Below are positions 35,287 to 43,609 of a stretch of 64,000 nucleotides of DNA, one piece after another (position 1 is the first letter of the stretch; each line of letters starts with the position of its first letter). The stretch is from Candidatus Anaerostipes avistercoris (lineage in GTDB: Bacteria > Bacillota > Clostridia > Lachnospirales > Lachnospiraceae). The notes under the pieces were generated by a model. That model saw only the letters and a list, made by a program, of their open reading frames with translations. It searched no databases and had not been told where the DNA came from. The DNA lies in NCBI GenBank assembly GCA_019119895.1, contig DWWD01000021.1, positions 11,789-75,788 on the forward strand. The letters are read 5' to 3'. The translations under genes were made by a program, and so were the position numbers.

Positions 35287-36776
35287 AATATGTATTAATG
35301 AATCAGGAAATGCAGGAGGTGGATCAGGAAACCATCCACCAGATCGGAATTCCGGGGCTGGTGCTCATGGAGCGGGCATCAGAAGCCGTGGCAGACTGCG
35401 CCAGGAGACGCACGGGGCGGAGCGGGAAAATTCTAGTGATCGCCGGAATCGGAAATAACGGCGGAGACGCGCTGGCAGCAGCCAGGATTCTCCTGGAAGA
35501 AGATTACCAGACAGACTATATGATTGTGGGAAAGACAGAGAAGGCCTCAGAAGACCTGAAAACACAGCTTCAGATTCTTAAGCGTCTGGGGTATGAACCG
35601 GTAAAAGAGCCGGATCTGACTGACTATGATCTTCTCATAGAAGGGATTTTCGGAGTTGGATTATCCCGGGAAGTCGGAGGCATTTACCGGGATATGATTG
35701 AAACAATCAATGCATCCGGGCGGGTGGTCATTGCCATTGATATTCCTTCCGGAATCAGCGGAAACACGGGAAAAGTCATGGGATGTGCTGTAAAGGCGGC
35801 AGAGACAGTGACATTTGGAGGATATAAGAGAGGCCATCTTTTATATCCGGGAAGGGAATACTGTGGAAAAGTAACCCTGGCAGGCATCGGTTTCCATAAA
35901 CAGACCATCGAAAAGCACGCATCAGGATTTACACTGGAAGATCCGGCGGGGCTGATGCCGCCGAGGTCCTCTTATTCCAATAAAGGAACCTACGGGAAAA
36001 TCCTGATGATCACAGGCAGCGAAACTATGTCCGGGGCAGCGGCGTTTGCAGGAGAAGCGGCTCTGCGCATGGGGGCAGGTCTGGTAAAGATTTTGTCTCA
36101 TTCATCCAATCGTCCGATTCTGCAGAGCCGTCTGCCGGAGATTTTGTTTGGAGAGCGCTCCGATCTGAAAGAGTCCCTGGAATGGTGCAGCTGTATTTTG
36201 TTTGGACCGGGAACCGGCGTAAATGAAGAAACAAAAGAAATGCTGGAATACATTCTGAACCATGGAACGAAGCCGCTGATCCTTGACGCGGACGGACTGA
36301 ATACGGTCAGCAGATATCATATGGAAATCCATTATCCTTACGGTGTTGTCATGACACCTCATCTCATGGAAGGAGCAAGGCTTCTTGGCAGGGACATCAG
36401 TGAAGTCAAAGACGATATCTGCGGCGCGGCCTGTGAGATTGCGGAGAAATATCATGCTGCCGCGGTTCTGAAAGATGCCGCCACAGTGGTTGCACAAAGT
36501 CAGGAGAAGTTGTATATTAATCAGAGCGGTAATCATGGAATGGCAGCCGGAGGAAGCGGCGATGTGCTTGCGGGAATGATCACCGGACTGGTGGGAACCG
36601 GCTGCAGACCGTACGATGCGGCTGTCCGCGGCGTATATCTTCATGGCCTGGCAGGAGATGCCGCCAGGGATGAAAAAGGGGCTTACAGCATGATTGCGTC
36701 AGATATTTTACATCATATACAAGACGTCACAGGAGGGAAACATGAATCAGTACTACCGGGTGCATGCAGTCATTGA
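35283..36776 (+). CDS. nnr: bifunctional NAD(P)HX epimerase/dehydratase
   Basis: YjeF-N GNNGGD and DIPSG; ribokinase-like NKGTYG, DADGL, TPH, GGSGDVLAG. Confidence 0.93.
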   Translation: MKYVLMNQEMQEVDQETIHQIGIPGLVLMERASEAVADCARRRTGRSGKILVIAGIGNNGGDALAAARILLEEDYQTDYMIVGKTEKASEDLKTQLQILKRLGYEPVKEPDLTDYDLLIEGIFGVGLSREVGGIYRDMIETINASGRVVIAIDIPSGISGNTGKVMGCAVKAAETVTFGGYKRGHLLYPGREYCGKVTLAGIGFHKQTIEKHASGFTLEDPAGLMPPRSSYSNKGTYGKILMITGSETMSGAAAFAGEAALRMGAGLVKILSHSSNRPILQSRLPEILFGERSDLKESLEWCSCILFGPGTGVNEETKEMLEYILNHGTKPLILDADGLNTVSRYHMEIHYPYGVVMTPHLMEGARLLGRDISEVKDDICGAACEIAEKYHAAAVLKDAATVVAQSQEKLYINQSGNHGMAAGGSGDVLAGMITGLVGTGCRPYDAAVRGVYLHGLAGDAARDEKGAYSMIASDILHHIQDVTGGKHESVLPGACSH

Positions 36777-37908
36777 TCTGGATGCGATCTGTCATAATAT
36801 AGAAGAAGTCAAAAGAGTCACAGGACCGGATGTAAAAGTAATGCCGGTCATCAAAGCAGACGGATACGGGCACGGAGCCGTGCCGATCGCGAAAGCGCTG
36901 AACGAAATCGGCGTGGACGCATTTGCCGTTGCCATCATCGAGGAAGGGATCACCCTCAGAAAGAATGGGATTACTCAGCCGATCGTGATTCTCGGATACA
37001 CATCAGAATATCAATACAGTTCCCTGATTCAGTATGAGATTCAGCCAACTGTTTTCTGCTATGAAATGGCGGAATCTCTCTCAAGGATCGCGTCAGCTCT
37101 CGGAAAGGACGCTAGGATCCATATTAAACTGGATACCGGCATGAACCGTATTGGATTCAAGCCGACCATAGAGTCGCTGGAAACCGTAAAGAAAATATCA
37201 AAACTCCCGCATATTATCATTGAGGGGATTTTTACTCATTTTGCCTGCGCGGATGAGGCGGACAAGACTTCCGCAAAGAAGCAGAAAGCAGAGTATGACA
37301 AATTCATTGGATGGCTGAAAGAAGAAGGAATCCACATACCATTAAAACACGTTTCCAACAGCGCGGCGATCATTGATATGAACGCCTGGAAAATGGATAT
37401 GGTGCGTTCCGGCATTATTACCTACGGACTTTATCCTTCCGAGGAAGTATCGAAAGAGGTGCTTAACCTGAAACCGGCCATGTCTTTAAAGACTCATATT
37501 GTATATATCAAGGAGGTCGGTCCGGGGGAGGGAGTCAGTTACAATCATACCTTTGTGACAGAGAGAAATACAAAAGTTGCCACTATACCGGTGGGATATG
37601 CGGACGGCTATCCGAGAAATCTTTCTTCCAAAGGAAGGGTGCTGATCCGGGGACAGTACGCACCGATCATCGGAAGAATCTGTATGGACCAGTTTATGGT
37701 AGATGTAACGGACATTGACGGCGTTCAGGTCATGGACGAAGTGACTCTTATAGGACAGGACGGAGATCACCGTATTTCTGTGGAGGAGGCGGCCAATGCC
37801 GCGGGTTCCTTCAATTACGAATTCGTCTGCGGTATCAGCAAAAGGGTGCCGAGAGTTTATATGCAGCATGGAAAGATGAAAAAAGCGGTGGAATATCTGG
37901 AAAAATAA
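36742..37908 (+). CDS. alr: alanine racemase
   Basis: VIKADGYGHGA (PLP Lys), KLDTGMNRIG, GYADG, GRICMDQ. Start at ATG 36742. Confidence 0.97.
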   Translation: MNQYYRVHAVIDLDAICHNIEEVKRVTGPDVKVMPVIKADGYGHGAVPIAKALNEIGVDAFAVAIIEEGITLRKNGITQPIVILGYTSEYQYSSLIQYEIQPTVFCYEMAESLSRIASALGKDARIHIKLDTGMNRIGFKPTIESLETVKKISKLPHIIIEGIFTHFACADEADKTSAKKQKAEYDKFIGWLKEEGIHIPLKHVSNSAAIIDMNAWKMDMVRSGIITYGLYPSEEVSKEVLNLKPAMSLKTHIVYIKEVGPGEGVSYNHTFVTERNTKVATIPVGYADGYPRNLSSKGRVLIRGQYAPIIGRICMDQFMVDVTDIDGVQVMDEVTLIGQDGDHRISVEEAANAAGSFNYEFVCGISKRVPRVYMQHGKMKKAVEYLEK

Positions 37909-37989
37909 AGGCCGTTTGTGAATACTTCTGAAACAATCGGAGATACTCTTCATAAAATAGAAAGAAAGAAATGGAGAGTGAGAAGGCTT

Positions 37990-38337
37990 ATGGTAATTAA
38001 GCGAGGAGATATATTCTATGCGGATTTGAGGCCTGTGATCGGATCAGAGCAGGGAGGGATACGTCCCGTTATTATTTTGCAGAACGACGCGGGCAACCGC
38101 TACAGCCCCACGGTCATCTGTGCGGCCATTACCAGTAAAATGAATAAAGCGAAACTTCCGACTCATGTGCCGCTGGACTGCAGAAAATGTGAGCTGGAAA
38201 GAGATTCCGTCATTTTGCTGGAACAGATACGGACCATAGATAAAAGCCGGCTGCGGGAAAAAGTATGTCACTTAAACTGTTCTTTTATCCAGCGGGTAGA
38301 CCGTGCTCTGCGGATCAGCTTAAGCCTTGATACATAG
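37990..38337 (+). CDS. mazF: MazF/PemK endoribonuclease (NdoA/EndoA-like)
   Basis: [46 protein letters not shown]: close to B. subtilis NdoA. Start at ATG 37990. Confidence 0.93.
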
Positions 38338-38442: not shown

Positions 38443-39171
38443 ATGTCAGGACACAGTAAATTTGCGAATATCAAACATAAAAAAGAAAAGAATGACGCAA
38501 AGAAAGGAAAGATTTTTACCGTGATCGGACGTGAGATCGCGGTAGCGGTCAAAGAAGGAGGACCGGATCCGGACAATAACAGCAAATTAAGAGATGTGAT
38601 CGCAAAGGCGAAAGCAAACAATATGCCGAATGACACCATCGAAAGAGGAATCAAAAAGGCAGCCGGCGACGCGGATTCCGTAAACTATGAGCAGATCACA
38701 TATGAAGGATACGGACCAAGCGGCGTAGCGATCATCGTAGACACGCTGACAGATAATAAGAACCGTACAGCTTCCAACGTAAGAAGCGCCTTTACAAAGG
38801 GAAACGGAAATGTCGGAACTCCGGGATGCGTTTCTTATATGTTTGAGAAAAAAGGCCAGATTATCATTGACAAAGAAGAATGTGAGATGGATGCAGATGA
38901 CCTTATGATGATGGCTCTGGATGCCGGAGCGGAAGACTTTGTAGAAGAAGATGACAGTTTTGAAGTTCTCACAGCGCCGGAAGATTTCAGCCAGGTACGC
39001 GAAGCGCTGGAAAAAGAAGGAATCGCCATGGCAGACGCCAATGTGACCATGATTCCGGGAACAACCGTGCAGCTGACAAATCCGGATGATATTAAGAGCC
39101 TGCAGAAGACTTTGGATCTCCTGGATGATGATGACGATGTGCAGGAAGTATATCATAACTGGGAAGAGTAA
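38443..39171 (+). CDS. yebC: YebC/PmpR family protein
   Basis: [33 protein letters not shown]. Confidence 0.97.
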
Positions 39172-39220
39172 AGGAACCATTTTATAAAATAAAAATATGA
39201 GAAAATAAAGATACATACGA

Positions 39221-39250
39221 AAATCGCCGTTTGAGAACAGACGGCGATTT
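39221..39250. terminator. bidirectional terminator
   Basis: AAATCGCCGTTTG/CAGACGGCGATTT stem. Confidence 0.8.
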
Positions 39251-39265
39251 CTGCATGTTATGAAA

Positions 39266-39880
39266 TTATTTCAGAATGTAGGATTTTATAATTCCTCCCA
39301 CCGGATTATAAGACAATGTCTTGTCATAAAACCGGATCAGTTCATCCAGTTTGGAAGCCGCGAATTTCTGAAGAATATCCACAGAAGTAATATGAGCGAT
39401 GATATCCATTTTGGAAAAAACCATCTGATACAGTTCTTCTCCGGCGGTAAAGAAAAGATCCGTATCAAGGCCAATGCGCTCTGCGTAGTAATGATAGCCA
39501 ATCTGATGACGTTCCAGAATATATTCGCCGGCACGGATTTTGCGGCCAATCAGGAAATGAATCGGTTCCTGATTGGAAGGGTCAGAACTCATTTTGACCA
39601 GAAGTCTTTGGAAAAATTCAGTATCCAGGGTTTGTTTTGACTGCAGATAGCCGTAGACGAAATCTTCAATGTTTACTTTTTGAGGAAACAGGCGGTTGGG
39701 ATTCTGCATCATAATCTGGTTGGCTCCGCAGGTAACAGCAACGCCGTTGGAAAACGGAAAAAGTTTCTGGGGCTGCCGGCCTGGATCTTCGACATATTTT
39801 CCATTTTCTCTGATAGATCCTTTTGAATCTGCAACGGCGGCAAGTCCGTCTTTGGCTTTGAAAATACCGATAAATGACAT
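39266..39880 (-). CDS. hypothetical protein with proteasome-beta/Ntn-hydrolase-like motif layout
   Basis: 204 aa from ATG 39880 (GAGGAA RBS). Starts MSFIGIFKAKDGLAAVADSK; contains QKLF and CGA; ends NPVGGIIKSYIL. The ORF is solid; the fold call is inferred. Confidence 0.6.
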   Translation of the reverse strand: MSFIGIFKAKDGLAAVADSKGSIRENGKYVEDPGRQPQKLFPFSNGVAVTCGANQIMMQNPNRLFPQKVNIEDFVYGYLQSKQTLDTEFFQRLLVKMSSDPSNQEPIHFLIGRKIRAGEYILERHQIGYHYYAERIGLDTDLFFTAGEELYQMVFSKMDIIAHITSVDILQKFAASKLDELIRFYDKTLSYNPVGGIIKSYILK

Positions 39881-40100
39881 TTCAGATTCCTCATTTCTTT
39901 TATATTCTATGAAATTATACAATGAGAATATTTTTGGCGCAAGTTTTCGCTGCCAGTATATAGCTTCTGTTTTTTTGTCTGGCTATATCGCAGGGAACAT
40001 AGGCGCAAATGATGATGAAACTTAAAAAAGTGAAAGGAAGCGATGATAATTTGCGTATTTTCTGAAAAATGTATAAAATAACCAAAAAAATCCAAAAATA

Positions 40101-40214: not shown

Positions 40215-41009
40215 ATGGAGCTTCAAAAATTGCAGTATACCGTAGAAGACGGTGTCGGAATTATTGCGATGTACTATCCCCAAAATTTGAATGCAATTGA
40301 TGAACAAATGGCGGATGAATTGTTGTATGTGGTAGATGCCTGTGAAAACGATCCAGAGGTAAAAGTCGTCGTGATGAAAGGAATGCCGAAGGCTTTTTCT
40401 GCAGGAGGTGATATTGGATATTTTTATGATATCATCCAGCAGGGCGGTGAAGTCAACATGGATTCATTATTTGACAAGGTCGGCAATGTAACAAATGGGT
40501 TAAAGCGTATGAGTAAACTTGTTATTGCACAGGTAAGCGGAGCGGCGGCCGGAGCAGGGGTCAGCCTTGCCTTTTCTGCGGATTTTGTCGTATGCGCGGA
40601 CAATGCAAAGTTTATCATGGCATTTGTTAATCTTGGACTGGTGCCGGATACAGGGGGTACATATTTGCTTGTGAAGAGTCTTGGCGCCCAACGGGCGATG
40701 GAACTATGCGCGACAGGACGCCCGCTGAAAGCTCAGGAGGCGAAAGATGCAGGAATTGTCTATGATGTGGTGGCTGCGGACGAACTGGATGAGACAGTTA
40801 TGAAACTGGCGAAAAAATTTGCGGCAGGACCTCTTCTTTCTTACAAAAATATCAAGAAGCAGATTTATCAGGCAAGCTTCTATGATTATAAAAAATATCT
40901 GGATGAATGTGAGATTCCGACACAAAGCGAATGCGCCGCGTCAAAAGACTTTATCGAAGGCGTCAAGGCATTTATGGAAAAACGAAGGGCAGAATTTAAA
41001 GGTGAATGA
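40215..41009 (+). CDS. crotonase-superfamily enzyme, PaaG-like enoyl-CoA isomerase
   Basis: FSAGGD, AAGAG, AKFIMAFVNLGLVPDTGGTYLL, EGVKAFMEKR. Confidence 0.88.
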   Translation: MELQKLQYTVEDGVGIIAMYYPQNLNAIDEQMADELLYVVDACENDPEVKVVVMKGMPKAFSAGGDIGYFYDIIQQGGEVNMDSLFDKVGNVTNGLKRMSKLVIAQVSGAAAGAGVSLAFSADFVVCADNAKFIMAFVNLGLVPDTGGTYLLVKSLGAQRAMELCATGRPLKAQEAKDAGIVYDVVAADELDETVMKLAKKFAAGPLLSYKNIKKQIYQASFYDYKKYLDECEIPTQSECAASKDFIEGVKAFMEKRRAEFKGE

Positions 41010-41062
41010 TACAATGTTGAAAGAATTTCAGGTTCCTTCAAGGTGAAGGAATGTGAGGAGGG

Positions 41063-41788
41063 ATGTCATTGAAATCAAAGGTAGTAACAAGAGAGGAAGC
41101 TCTTGAGAAGATCCACAGCGGTCAGACCATTATGTTTGGAGACTGGCATGGAGAATTTTCCGCGGAAGAAATTATCAGCGGTATGCTGGAAAAAGGCGTA
41201 ACAGATATCGACGCGATCGCAGTGTCTGCCGGTATGCCGGACCAGGGTCTCGGACGCCTGATCAATGAAAGAAGGGTGAAGAGCCTGATCACAACCCATA
41301 TTGGTTTGAATCCGGTAGCGCGGGATCAGATGTTTGCAGGAGAACTGGAAATAGAATTCAGTCCGCAGGGTACATTTGCAGAAAGGATTCGATGCGGAGG
41401 CGCGGGACTCGGAGGATGTCTGACACCAACCGGCATCGGGACGGACGTGGAAAAAGGCAAAGAGAAGCTCACGATCAATGGAAAAGAATATCTGCTGGAA
41501 CTGCCGCTTCGTGCTGATGTGGCGCTGATCAAGGCGACGAAAGCTGATACGGCAGGAAATATTTCTTTCAGAATGAACTCAAGGGCCACGAACAGTACGA
41601 TGGCGATGGCGGCTGACTGGGTTATAGCAGAAGTAGAAGAGATCGTAGAAGTTGGAGAATTGGGACCGGAAGAGATTGATGTTCCGGCACCTGTAATCGA
41701 CATGGTCTATGAGAGGACCGGAGAGAAGAGGTATCTGTGTCCGATGTGGCAGAAGTTAAAGGCAAAAGCGGAAGGGGGCAAGGCATAA
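41063..41788 (+). CDS. class I CoA-transferase subunit A (AtoD/ScoA-like, divergent)
   Basis: ITTHIG.NP, PQGTFAERIRCGGAGLGG.LTPTG.GT, ADVALIKA. Start may be TTG 41069. Confidence 0.88.
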   Translation: MSLKSKVVTREEALEKIHSGQTIMFGDWHGEFSAEEIISGMLEKGVTDIDAIAVSAGMPDQGLGRLINERRVKSLITTHIGLNPVARDQMFAGELEIEFSPQGTFAERIRCGGAGLGGCLTPTGIGTDVEKGKEKLTINGKEYLLELPLRADVALIKATKADTAGNISFRMNSRATNSTMAMAADWVIAEVEEIVEVGELGPEEIDVPAPVIDMVYERTGEKRYLCPMWQKLKAKAEGGKA

Positions 41789-42447
41789 TGGCGGAATTGA
41801 AAGGACGTAAATTAATTGCATCTCGCTGCGCAAAGTTTTTCAAAGATGGAGATTTTGTCAATCTTGGGATTGGTCTTCCACTGATGTGTGTAAATTATCT
41901 GCCGGAAGGCGTAGATCTCTGGCTGGAAGCGGAGATTGGGACTGTAGGCAGTGGAGCGACTCCGAAATGGGGAGAAGAAGATATTGATGTCATTGATGCG
42001 GGAGGACAGCCAGCTTCTGTGATTAAGGGCGGCAGTGTATGTGACCATGAGACTTCTTTTGCCTATATCAGAGGCGGACATATCGATGCGGCAGTGCTGG
42101 GAACTTTACAGGTAGACGAAGAAGGAAATATCGCTAATTGGACCATTCCTGGGAAACTGGTTCCTGGAATGGGTGGAGCGATGGATTTGTGTGCGGGAGT
42201 CAAGCGTATCATCGTTGCTACAGATCACTGTGAAAAAAGTGGAAGATCTAAAATATTAAAAAAATGTACGCTGCCGCTGACCGGTGTCAAATGTGTGACG
42301 GATATCGTGACGGAGAAATGTTATTTCCAGGTAGGTTCGGACGGACTGATTCTCAGGGAACTGGCGCCTGGATATACTGTGGAAGATGTTCTGGCAAGCA
42401 CGGAAGCAAAGGTAATTATACCGGACGAGATTGGCGTAATGGAATAA
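41788..42447 (+). CDS. class I CoA-transferase subunit B (AtoA/ScoB-like)
   Basis: VNLGIGLP, AEIG (catalytic Glu position), RGGHID...LG..QVD..G.IANW, GMGGAMDL. TAATG coupling to subunit A. Confidence 0.9.
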   Translation: MAELKGRKLIASRCAKFFKDGDFVNLGIGLPLMCVNYLPEGVDLWLEAEIGTVGSGATPKWGEEDIDVIDAGGQPASVIKGGSVCDHETSFAYIRGGHIDAAVLGTLQVDEEGNIANWTIPGKLVPGMGGAMDLCAGVKRIIVATDHCEKSGRSKILKKCTLPLTGVKCVTDIVTEKCYFQVGSDGLILRELAPGYTVEDVLASTEAKVIIPDEIGVME

Positions 42448-42622: not shown

Positions 42623-43609
42623 ATGAGAATAAGAATTGGAATTTTAGGATATGGAAATTTAGGACGGGGAGTAGAGTGTGCGGTAAAACAGAATCCTGAC
42701 ATGGAAGTAGCGGCCGTTTTTACAAGGAGAGATCCGAAAGACGTGACAATTCTGACAGAATCAGCGCAGGTGTGTCATGTGTCAGAAGCAGAGAAATGGA
42801 CGGATAAGATTGACGTCATGATCTTGTGTGGAGGAAGCGCAACCGACCTTCCGGAACAAACGCCGAAATATGCATCTATGTTCCATGTGGTGGACAGCTT
42901 TGATACTCACGCAAGAATTCCGGAACATTTTGCTAATGTAGACGCTGCTGCAAAAGAAGGCGGGAAAGTCGGTGTTATTTCTGTGGGCTGGGATCCGGGA
43001 ATGTTTTCATTAAACCGTATGTATGCCAATGCGATTCTTCCGGAAGGAAAAGACTATACATTCTGGGGCAAAGGTGTAAGCCAGGGACACTCTGACGCGA
43101 TCCGACGGGTAAAAGGAGTAAAAGACGGAAAGCAGTATACGATTCCTGTGGACGCGGCTCTGGAAGCAGTGAGAAATGGAGAAGATCCGGATCTGACCAC
43201 AAGAGAAAAACATACAAGAGAGTGCTTTGTTGTACTGGAAGACGGCGCCGACGCGGCGGCAGTAGAAGAAGAAATCAAAAACATGCCGAATTATTTTGTG
43301 GATTATGATACAACTGTACATTTTATCAGTGAGGAAGAATTAAAAAGAGACCACAGCGGAATCCCTCACGGAGGCTTTGTTCTCCGAAGCGGAAGAACCG
43401 GATGGGAAGGAGAAAATCATCACCTGATTGAATACAGCCTGAAATTAGACTCCAATCCGGAATTTACTTCCAGTGTGATCGCAGCTTACGCAAGAGCGGC
43501 TTATAAACTTGCCGAAGAAGGACAGACCGGCTGCAAGACTGTATTTGATATCGCGCCGGCTTATTTAAGTCCGAAAACAGGAGAGGAACTTCGTGCATCT
43601 TTATTATAG
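42623..43609 (+). CDS. ddh: meso-diaminopimelate D-dehydrogenase
   Basis: GYGNLGRG, CGGSATD, DSFDTH, GWDPGMFS, FWG.GVSQGHSDA, NPEFT. Confidence 0.96.
   Translation: MRIRIGILGYGNLGRGVECAVKQNPDMEVAAVFTRRDPKDVTILTESAQVCHVSEAEKWTDKIDVMILCGGSATDLPEQTPKYASMFHVVDSFDTHARIPEHFANVDAAAKEGGKVGVISVGWDPGMFSLNRMYANAILPEGKDYTFWGKGVSQGHSDAIRRVKGVKDGKQYTIPVDAALEAVRNGEDPDLTTREKHTRECFVVLEDGADAAAVEEEIKNMPNYFVDYDTTVHFISEEELKRDHSGIPHGGFVLRSGRTGWEGENHHLIEYSLKLDSNPEFTSSVIAAYARAAYKLAEEGQTGCKTVFDIAPAYLSPKTGEELRASLL

Follow-up and report, generated by a model that had tools for sequence, protein, structure and literature searches.

What kind of protein is encoded by an isolated open reading frame (ORF) in the gut bacterium Candidatus Anaerostipes avistercoris, alone on its strand and without a recognised domain? 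The window analysed here is a stretch of 64,000 nucleotides from GenBank assembly GCA_019119895.1 (contig DWWD01000021.1, positions 11,789 to 75,788), and the ORF comprises 204 codons on its minus strand, at 39266-39880 (MSFIGIFKAKDGLAAVADSKGS...QKLFPFSNGVAVTCGANQ...FTAGEELY...SYNPVGGIIKSYILK, followed by the stop codon). A sequence-only reading had taken the product for a highly diverged N-terminal nucleophile (Ntn) hydrolase related to proteasome β subunits. The predicted fold, together with conserved residues Ser1, Asp17 and Lys38, supports that assignment, and we conclude that the gene probably encodes a stand-alone, catalytically competent Ntn hydrolase with a predicted proteasome β-subunit fold. 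The coding sequence and the positions on which this conclusion draws are as follows; mature numbering starts at the Ser that follows the initiator Met, which gives Ser1, Asp17, Lys38 and Gly51 for the conserved residues at catalytic positions.

39266-39880, minus strand: coding sequence including the stop codon, predicted 204-amino-acid proteasome-like Ser1 Ntn hydrolase (ORF, homologues, AlphaFold2, Foldseek, dN/dS).
39875-39880, minus strand: ATG and the Ser codon TCA; the Ser would be the N-terminal nucleophile Ser1 once Met is removed (Met-Ser conservation, upstream stops).
39827-39829, minus strand: Asp18 codon (mature Asp17), putative counterpart of proteasome Asp/Glu17 (invariant in 34 sequences; aligned with Glu17 in a non-significant hhalign register).
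39764-39766, minus strand: Lys39 codon (mature Lys38), putative counterpart of proteasome Lys33, inside K-L-F (invariant in 34 sequences; starts strand 40-43).
39725-39727, minus strand: Gly52 codon (mature Gly51), candidate oxyanion-hole glycine corresponding to proteasome Gly47 (at least 90% conserved; end of strand 46-52).
39293-39310, minus strand: Y191-N-P-V-G-G196 loop, positional counterpart of proteasome D166-x-x-S169-G-G (conservation; followed by strand 199-203).

A search of 5.8 billion clustered proteins returned 30 close homologues with 41-100% identity, 21 of them 204 amino acids long and four 205; all that carry a name are called 'hypothetical protein'. NCBI accessions of the family are WP_216435380.1, WP_412231346.1, WP_443770333.1 and MEE1312479.1, with MFR2775148.1 and MBU5460295.1 outside RefSeq, and the cluster of the A. 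hadrus type holds 2,144 member sequences in the protein collection. The gene is intact, at 203-205 amino acids, in 18 GTDB species genomes, including Anaerostipes butyraticus, A. faecalis, A. hadrus, A. amylophilus, Anaerostipes sp. MSJ-23, sp. 992a, Candidatus A. excrementavium and a few metagenome-assembled genomes of Lachnospiraceae. An even sample of 201 genomes of this taxonomic family contained it only in the window's own genome and one congener. Pairwise dN/dS (the ratio of nonsynonymous to synonymous substitution rates) had a median of 0.13 and a range of 0.03-0.23 over pairs with unsaturated dS. The ORF is a real monocistronic gene under purifying selection and not a chance ORF, and its close family occurs only in Anaerostipes and a small number of Lachnospiraceae assemblies.

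Conserved positions were compared at two depths. Among 23 close homologues M1, S2, D18, S19, K20, K39-L40-F41, Y191, N192, V194, G195 and S200 are invariant. When 1.84 billion representatives were searched in full with HMMER, 53 proteins were found, and in an alignment of 34 of them reaching down to 23% identity Ser2, Gly12, Asp18, Lys39 and Tyr191 are still invariant, with Met1, Lys20, Gly52, Asn54, Glu72, Phe109, Gly112, Asn192, Val194 and Gly195 at least 90% conserved. The Ser1, D17 and K38-L-F motifs noticed in the sequence-only reading are therefore present and conserved, and the three catalytic residues themselves are kept across the homologues without exception. The same reading had described a C-terminal D/N-x-x-S-G-G motif, which proved to be mistaken: the residues are Y-N-P-V-G-G. 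From its position, this loop appears equivalent to the D166-S-A-S169-G-G loop of the proteasome, with Asn in place of Asp and Val/Gly in place of Ser169. One match does not look like a relative: P0041, a metagenomic repeat protein of 1226 amino acids, matched query residues 9-40 eleven times through the motif GTFVAKDIDANDSVTYSV, and it resembles a cadherin/VCBS-type repeat that matched spuriously through low complexity.

The fold was predicted in two AlphaFold2 runs, one with the alignment of 23 close sequences and one with the diverse alignment of 34. The first gave a mean predicted local distance difference test score (pLDDT) of 85.6 and a predicted template modelling score (pTM) of 0.84, with a poorly defined C-terminus; the second gave a pLDDT of 95.8 and a pTM of 0.90, with all elements defined. 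The better model has strands at 3-9 and 12-17, an extra hairpin (22-25/28-31), strands at 40-43, 46-52, 55-58 and 67-70, helices at 71-81 and 87-98, four strands within 107-147, helices at 149-163 and 167-188, and a final strand at 199-203. This modelled order, S1-S2-(hairpin)-S3-S4...H1-H2-S-S-S-S-H3-H4-S, is that of proteasome β subunits. Foldseek searches of the PDB at E ≤ 0.001 returned 14 hits for the first model and 75 for the second, and for both models the top 50 hits listed were all chains of the proteasome family, with probability 1.00. The Anbu structures 5nyg, 5nyj and 5nyw rank first (E 8e-6, template modelling (TM) score 0.47-0.52, 15-17% identity), followed by many 20S β subunits and then by BPH 5ovs and HslV 3ty6 and 1yyf. 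Among the predicted viral structures of BFVD, the gut siphovirus entry named 'Proteasome beta type-2 subunit' matches best (TM 0.59). The sequence-only reading had proposed a check of the fold, and what AlphaFold2 and Foldseek gave was a proteasome-type α-β-β-α sandwich, not a fold of another kind. The hydrolase is thus predicted to adopt this sandwich, with H1/H2 and H3/H4, and to lie closest to Anbu and 20S β subunits.

Agreement with the proteasome extends to the register of the catalytic residues. Aligned by hhalign with a profile of 121 archaeal β sequences, the family profile matched over 166 columns (P 0.079, not significant), placing KDGLAAVAD17 on KDAVIMATE17, QK38LF on KK33LF and FLIGRK on LLVGGI; the mature Thermoplasma acidophilum β reference sequence was identical to PDB 3c91_H. 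Five extra residues between Asp17 and Lys38 make up the additional hairpin of the model.

Several results weigh against a relationship to the proteasome. TM scores to solved structures are only about 0.5, with root mean square deviations of 5-6 Å, and the protein would therefore be a distant relative. The window protein matched nothing in Pfam or NCBIfam, nor in PHROGs or PADLOC. PF00227, the HslV/proteasome family, was matched once among the 34 relatives, at E 0.031; this and the other isolated weak matches of relatives (phrog_3646, HamA) were taken as chance. Querying the PDB by sequence, whether with the protein itself or with the close or the broad profile, produced noise and one proteasome β chain, which in the profile search stood at E 0.25 amid calmodulin noise. 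Against a 16-sequence HslV profile from Firmicute genomes hhalign produced nothing meaningful (P 0.02 over 12 columns); overall, P ranged from 0.02 to 0.45 against HslV and single or shallow β profiles and global mode gave nonsense alignments, in what is a weak test, with shallow reference profiles (Neff about 2.2) and no secondary-structure term. No sequence-based method tried links the family to the proteasome family at significance. The Val/Gly at the Ser169 position further implies that the hydrogen-bond network around the N-terminus differs from that of the 20S enzyme. With these points counted, the predicted structure and the catalytic-residue register still make a strong case for homology to the proteasome family, one that is not independent of AlphaFold.

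A catalytic Ser1 depends on where translation begins. The signals upstream of the gene are the following.

39887-39892, minus strand: Shine-Dalgarno sequence GAGGAA (the GAGGA core ends at 39888, 7 nucleotides upstream of the ATG).
39914-39942, minus strand: sigma-A-type promoter-like site read from the sequence, with TTGCGC at 39937-39942, a 17-nucleotide spacer and TATAAT at 39914-39919, with TG directly before it.

A GGAG/GAGGA box precedes an ATG-TCN (Met-Ser) start in all 19 orthologous loci compared, and 11 of the 19 have an in-frame stop 2-14 codons upstream with no alternative start between. The Met-Ser start is invariant in the close family, and the Ser is invariant across the whole superfamily. 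A start further upstream, at the TTG at 39922, had been named as a finding that would undo the assignment. This TTG lies directly upstream of the -10 hexamer and would therefore be upstream of the transcript; it was rejected on this adjacency together with the upstream stops and the Shine-Dalgarno boxes, and the 19 loci uphold ATG 39880. On this comparative evidence ATG 39880 is the true start, and the predicted product begins Met-Ser-Phe. Serine after the initiator Met is a favoured residue for methionine aminopeptidase, and its small side chain at position 2 suggests that the Met is removed.

Many of the more distant relatives have been called with 10-124 extra N-terminal residues by gene callers. 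Of 52 such extended relatives, all have Met or Val immediately ahead of the Ser except P0091, where the alignment is probably shifted. A check of the DNA of eight of them found ATG before the Ser codon in seven and GTG in one, with a purine-rich Shine-Dalgarno-like stretch within 12 nucleotides upstream in each and clear GGAGG/AGGAG cores in four of the eight. Together these features indicate initiation directly before the Ser throughout the superfamily, in agreement with the observation of Fuchs et al. that only proteasome β subunits and HslV have propeptides (PMC8665760). Two observations are not explained by internal initiation: the upstream frames of extended relatives stay open over more than 100 and up to 124 codons in AT-rich DNA, and several of the extensions share Y-G-x-T-N-like motifs (examples, from among relatives P0046-P0103, are L056:7001-7243, L060:7001-7321 and L062:7001-7234). 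The extensions may reflect dual initiation or a real pro-region.

On the proposed mechanism, translation would start at ATG 39880 and methionine aminopeptidase would remove Met1, exposing the free α-amino group of Ser1, so that no propeptide or autoprocessing would be needed. The Ser1 Oγ would attack a peptide or amide bond, with Lys38, held by Asp17, and the Ser1 amine acting as the proton shuttle and the Gly51 backbone NH stabilising the oxyanion. A GG(x) turn at 146-148 and the YNPVGG loop may keep the N-terminus in place, a role that Ser129, Asp166 and Ser169 play in the 20S enzyme. The extra β-hairpin (about residues 20-33) between Asp17 and Lys38 is predicted to lie beside the active site and is a likely specificity element. 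The enzyme would work without a dedicated AAA+ unfoldase, α subunit or tag system.

Three other functions could be built on the same fold. The protein could act like connectase, the archaeal ligase (6zvz), as a sequence-specific protein ligase or transpeptidase, with Ser1 forming an acyl-enzyme with one target protein that is then passed to an amine acceptor. Connectase is a proteasome homologue that is monomeric and has no partner, shares the nucleophile chemistry and carries an insertion near the active site (PMC8665760), and the hydrolase has both the hairpin in that region and no unfoldase partner. However, connectase lacks H1 and H2 and carries a two-helix lid between S3 and S4, whereas the hydrolase is modelled with H1 (71-81), H2 (87-98) and a β-hairpin (22-31) between S2 and S3; connectase is restricted to methanogens (PMC8665760). 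No connectase structure stood among the top 50 Foldseek hits listed, and none of the related loci offers a conserved neighbouring candidate substrate. We therefore regard a connectase-like ligase as distinctly unlikely. An amidase acting on small molecules or peptidoglycan fragments, such as diaminopimelate peptides, would be an Ntn amidohydrolase and not a protease. Many Ntn hydrolases are amidases (PMC8665760), the divergent neighbour is ddh, encoding meso-diaminopimelate dehydrogenase, in 9 of 18 related loci, and a Mur ligase and diaminopimelate epimerase are encoded close to the gene in Anaerostipes sp. MSJ-23. These neighbours are on the opposite strand, however, and their adjacency is explained by synteny within one genus, while at eight other loci the neighbours are unrelated (for example ldh, leuS, a purine permease or a topoisomerase). 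The structural matches listed all belong to the proteasome family and include no penicillin-acylase, Ntn-amidase or bile-salt-hydrolase fold, and a dedicated amidase seems very unlikely.

The fold might also have been kept without its chemistry, as in proteasome α or inactive β subunits, leaving a scaffold or regulatory subunit. The counterparts of Ser129 and Ser169 are indeed not serines (GG-x and V-G). In proteasome subunits without activity, however, Thr1, Asp17 or Lys33 has been lost, whereas here Ser1, Asp17 and Lys38 never vary and Gly51 is at least 90% conserved among sequences otherwise only 23% identical. The start codon always stands directly before the Ser, which argues that a free Ser N-terminus is needed. 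An inactive protein is thus highly improbable, and a catalytically competent, stand-alone hydrolase remains the reading that we prefer.

How this predicted hydrolase relates to known members of the proteasome family was examined by structure and gene context. With the 20S β subunit (T. acidophilum PsmB, 3c91/1pma) it shares the order of elements, Ser1/Thr1, Asp17/Glu17, the K-L-F at Lys33, a glycine in the oxyanion position and a G-G loop that precedes the final strand, all in the same register. It differs in having no α subunit, Gly-1 propeptide, autoprocessing or S11/H5 elements, its segment between Asp17 and the Lys is five residues longer, and the sequence similarity is not statistically detectable. 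HslV (ClpQ), which forms two rings with HslU as its partner, has the same fold, appears among the structural matches (3ty6, 1yyf) and is of similar size, at about 175-200 amino acids, but its mature chain starts with Thr1, its gene has hslU beside it and PF00227 is matched strongly (for example at locus L024), whereas the hydrolase has Ser1 and none of these features. Anbu (5nyg, 5nyj, 5nyw, 5loy) is the best structural match, is bacterial, and has its nucleophile directly after the Met with no long propeptide. It is normally encoded in a conserved operon with ATP-grasp and transglutaminase-like genes, whereas the neighbours of the hydrolase gene vary, no partner gene is conserved and PF00227 is not matched. 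Anbu also has a long C-terminal helix H5 with coiled-coil contacts (PMC8665760), and the hydrolase ends after the strand at 199-203.

The closest parallel in the literature is the set of 22 uncharacterised orphan proteasome-like families described by Fuchs, Alva and Lupas (2021, Bioinformatics 37:4694; PMC8665760). All of these have Thr1/Ser1-Asp17-Lys33-Gly47; no AAA+ partner can be identified for any of them, and their gene contexts are uninformative. Five of them, the Firmicute clusters FC1-FC5, belong to a 'group II' close to Anbu and WPH (PMC8665760). Compared by published description, the hydrolase resembles FC1-FC5 in its Firmicute host, in lacking a propeptide and an AAA+ partner, and in being nearer to Anbu and WPH than to HslV, and it fits these orphan Firmicute proteasome homologues in every feature tested. 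The family accessions differ from the representatives of the five clusters (WP_075525441.1, WP_000217171.1, WP_098409529.1, WP_076223917.1 and WP_106036939.1). Since most of its relatives are known only from metagenomes and would not be expected in nr in 2021, the family may be an additional cluster. The sequence-only reading had suggested an uncharacterised family and had called Ser1 and the lack of partners unusual. The family is indeed uncharacterised; with 22 such families catalogued it is not a new kind, and neither Ser1 nor the lack of partners is out of the ordinary among them (PMC8665760). A full-text literature search from 2022 onward found no paper treating Anbu, HslV and the proteasome together.

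Nearly all of the distant relatives (23-30% identity) come from metagenome assemblies alone, and the broad profile detected the superfamily in one of 399 scored Clostridia species genomes, that of the window itself. Each of the six contexts inspected is a long array of genes that all point the same way and bear the marks of Firmicute conjugative elements: topoisomerase III with DUF3945, SpaA/TQ surface adhesins, DnaG-type primase, DUF5688, an NlpC/P60 hydrolase with a PcsB coiled coil, SNF2-type helicase, N6 and EcoRI-type methylases and GmrSD/HNH. Two of these contexts hold a pair of genes, the first followed directly by a deeply diverged paralog that likewise has Ser1, the Asp and the Lys. 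These tandem paralogs come from different deep subclades (L054:1036-2360 and L057:7001-8661; also L058 and L059), and their pairing would fit either a hetero-oligomer or two separate specificities.

The 26 Anaerostipes-type proteins group as a single clade (support 100/99) in a maximum-likelihood tree of 80 sequences. The clade has a stem of 1.2 substitutions per site and short internal branches, and it lies among long-branched lineages of the mobile type. Read together, the tree and the contexts suggest that an Anaerostipes ancestor captured a mobile-element gene once and that the gene then descended vertically, under purifying selection. The chromosomal gene may thus have been domesticated from a mobile element, with vertical inheritance in the genus since then. 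Two points count against this history: the tree is midpoint-rooted only, so that the direction from mobile element to chromosome is not proven, and tblastn searches of sequenced records with the window protein and one mobile-type relative found no plasmid or phage match. Topoisomerase III genes occur on both sides of the comparison, beside or near the hydrolase gene in chromosomes of the A. hadrus type (L019-L022, L010) and near a relative in two contexts resembling conjugative elements (L056:4531-6978; L054:8104-8698). Anaerostipes topB is about 31% identical to the topoisomerase III of the elements, a level so low that the adjacency may be coincidence, and the window itself has no topB; the adjacency was therefore not taken as the remnant of a conjugative element.

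A fuller version of this history can be proposed, although we consider it unlikely as a whole. The superfamily, which has no Pfam or NCBIfam model and might fall outside the 22 clusters, would have its home in Firmicute conjugative elements, where tandem paralogs would form a two-subunit, partner-free 'mini-proteasome' active in element-host conflicts. Anaerostipes would have captured one copy and reduced it to a single propeptide-less subunit under a housekeeping promoter, with a new cellular role. The long stem branch and the strong purifying selection that follows it fit such a history of capture and repurposing. If it were true, an abundant butyrate producer of the human gut would offer a rare and genetically tractable example of a mobile-element protease that has been domesticated.

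Relative to the 2021 catalogue, what is added is the restriction of the close family to one genus, its probable origin as conjugative-element cargo and the tandem paralogs of its mobile relatives. None of the 22 orphan families of 2021 has a known function, substrate or quaternary structure, and the link to conjugative-element cargo may offer a first hint at the role of the wider family. The hydrolase gene is single-copy, well conserved and chromosomal, and occurs in cultivable Anaerostipes species. The short gene, the confident model and the absence of propeptide processing lead us to expect that expression, S1A controls and structure determination would be straightforward. A knock-out or an activity probe should read out the hydrolase alone, because no canonical gene of the PF00227 type is present: none was found anywhere in the window's genome, nor in 61 sampled genomes of Lachnospiraceae.

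By comparison, HslV was found in 54 of 61 genomes sampled across the phylum. Its absence from all 61 genomes of the taxonomic family, with or without the hydrolase gene, is therefore a trait of the family that is unconnected to this gene, and compensation for the loss of HslV was ruled out as an explanation on the same grounds.

The neighbourhood also speaks for an enzyme without dedicated partners. No gene for an AAA+ ATPase, an α subunit or a ubiquitin/Pup-like tag was found nearby in any of the 18 related loci, so that the absence of such partners reported for the window holds throughout. Most of these loci have no co-directional immediate neighbour (exceptions are L010, L012 and L013). Where ddh is not the divergent neighbour, genes for lactate/malate dehydrogenase, purine permease, leuS, topoisomerase III, spoIVA and aroE are found. 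A conserved operon or partner gene was ruled out, since the neighbours vary and the adjacency of ddh is synteny at the level of the genus.

In the window, the gene stands as first described, a 204-amino-acid ORF with its own ribosome-binding site between yebC and the CoA-transferase operon, as borne out by the ORF, the GAGGAA box and the Pfam-checked flanks. It is the only gene on its strand there, convergent with yebC (38443-39171, plus strand) and divergent from an operon for enoyl-CoA hydratase and CoA-transferase A/B (ech-ctfAB; 40215-42447, plus strand). Pfam confirmed YebC and, beyond it, the PemK/MazF-type protein, as well as enoyl-CoA hydratase at 40215-41009 and CoA-transferase A and B at 41063-42447, and further out meso-diaminopimelate dehydrogenase at 42623-43609, followed by an α/β hydrolase. 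Neighbouring proteins in the window are 88-98% identical to their A. butyraticus counterparts. The G+C content of the gene is 0.42-0.43, close to the 0.43-0.47 of its neighbours, and the gene is therefore not compositionally foreign. A further element lies between the two convergent genes.

39213-39258, either strand: hairpin between the convergent yebC and hydrolase genes, likely a bidirectional intrinsic terminator (folding, U-rich tracts on both strands).

This hairpin folds at -24.6 kcal/mol (z-score -7.6), and none of 200 shuffled sequences folded as well. An Rfam search of the gene flanks gave no match. On the promoter side, the upstream sequence TGTATAAT recurs at about the same distance in L001, L006 and L007, and most other orthologous loci have TATAAT-like boxes. 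The promoter-like site was absent from an automatic promoter scan because its -35 element matches at only 3 of 6 positions. The upstream boxes of the hydrolase orthologues are sigma-A-like, and no sporulation-type promoter was seen among them.

Two further features of the surrounding DNA were noted. Relative to the hydrolase gene, the ech-ctfAB operon occupies one side in the window and at L006 and the opposite side at L011 and L014; it is absent at L007 and L008, and from this locus in A. butyraticus. As its side differs between Anaerostipes species, the operon appears to be locally mobile or rearranged. Beyond yebC, a gene for a PemK/MazF-type toxin (37990-38337, plus strand; the longest ORF starts from a GTG at 37918) lies directly downstream of the alanine racemase gene (36739-37908).

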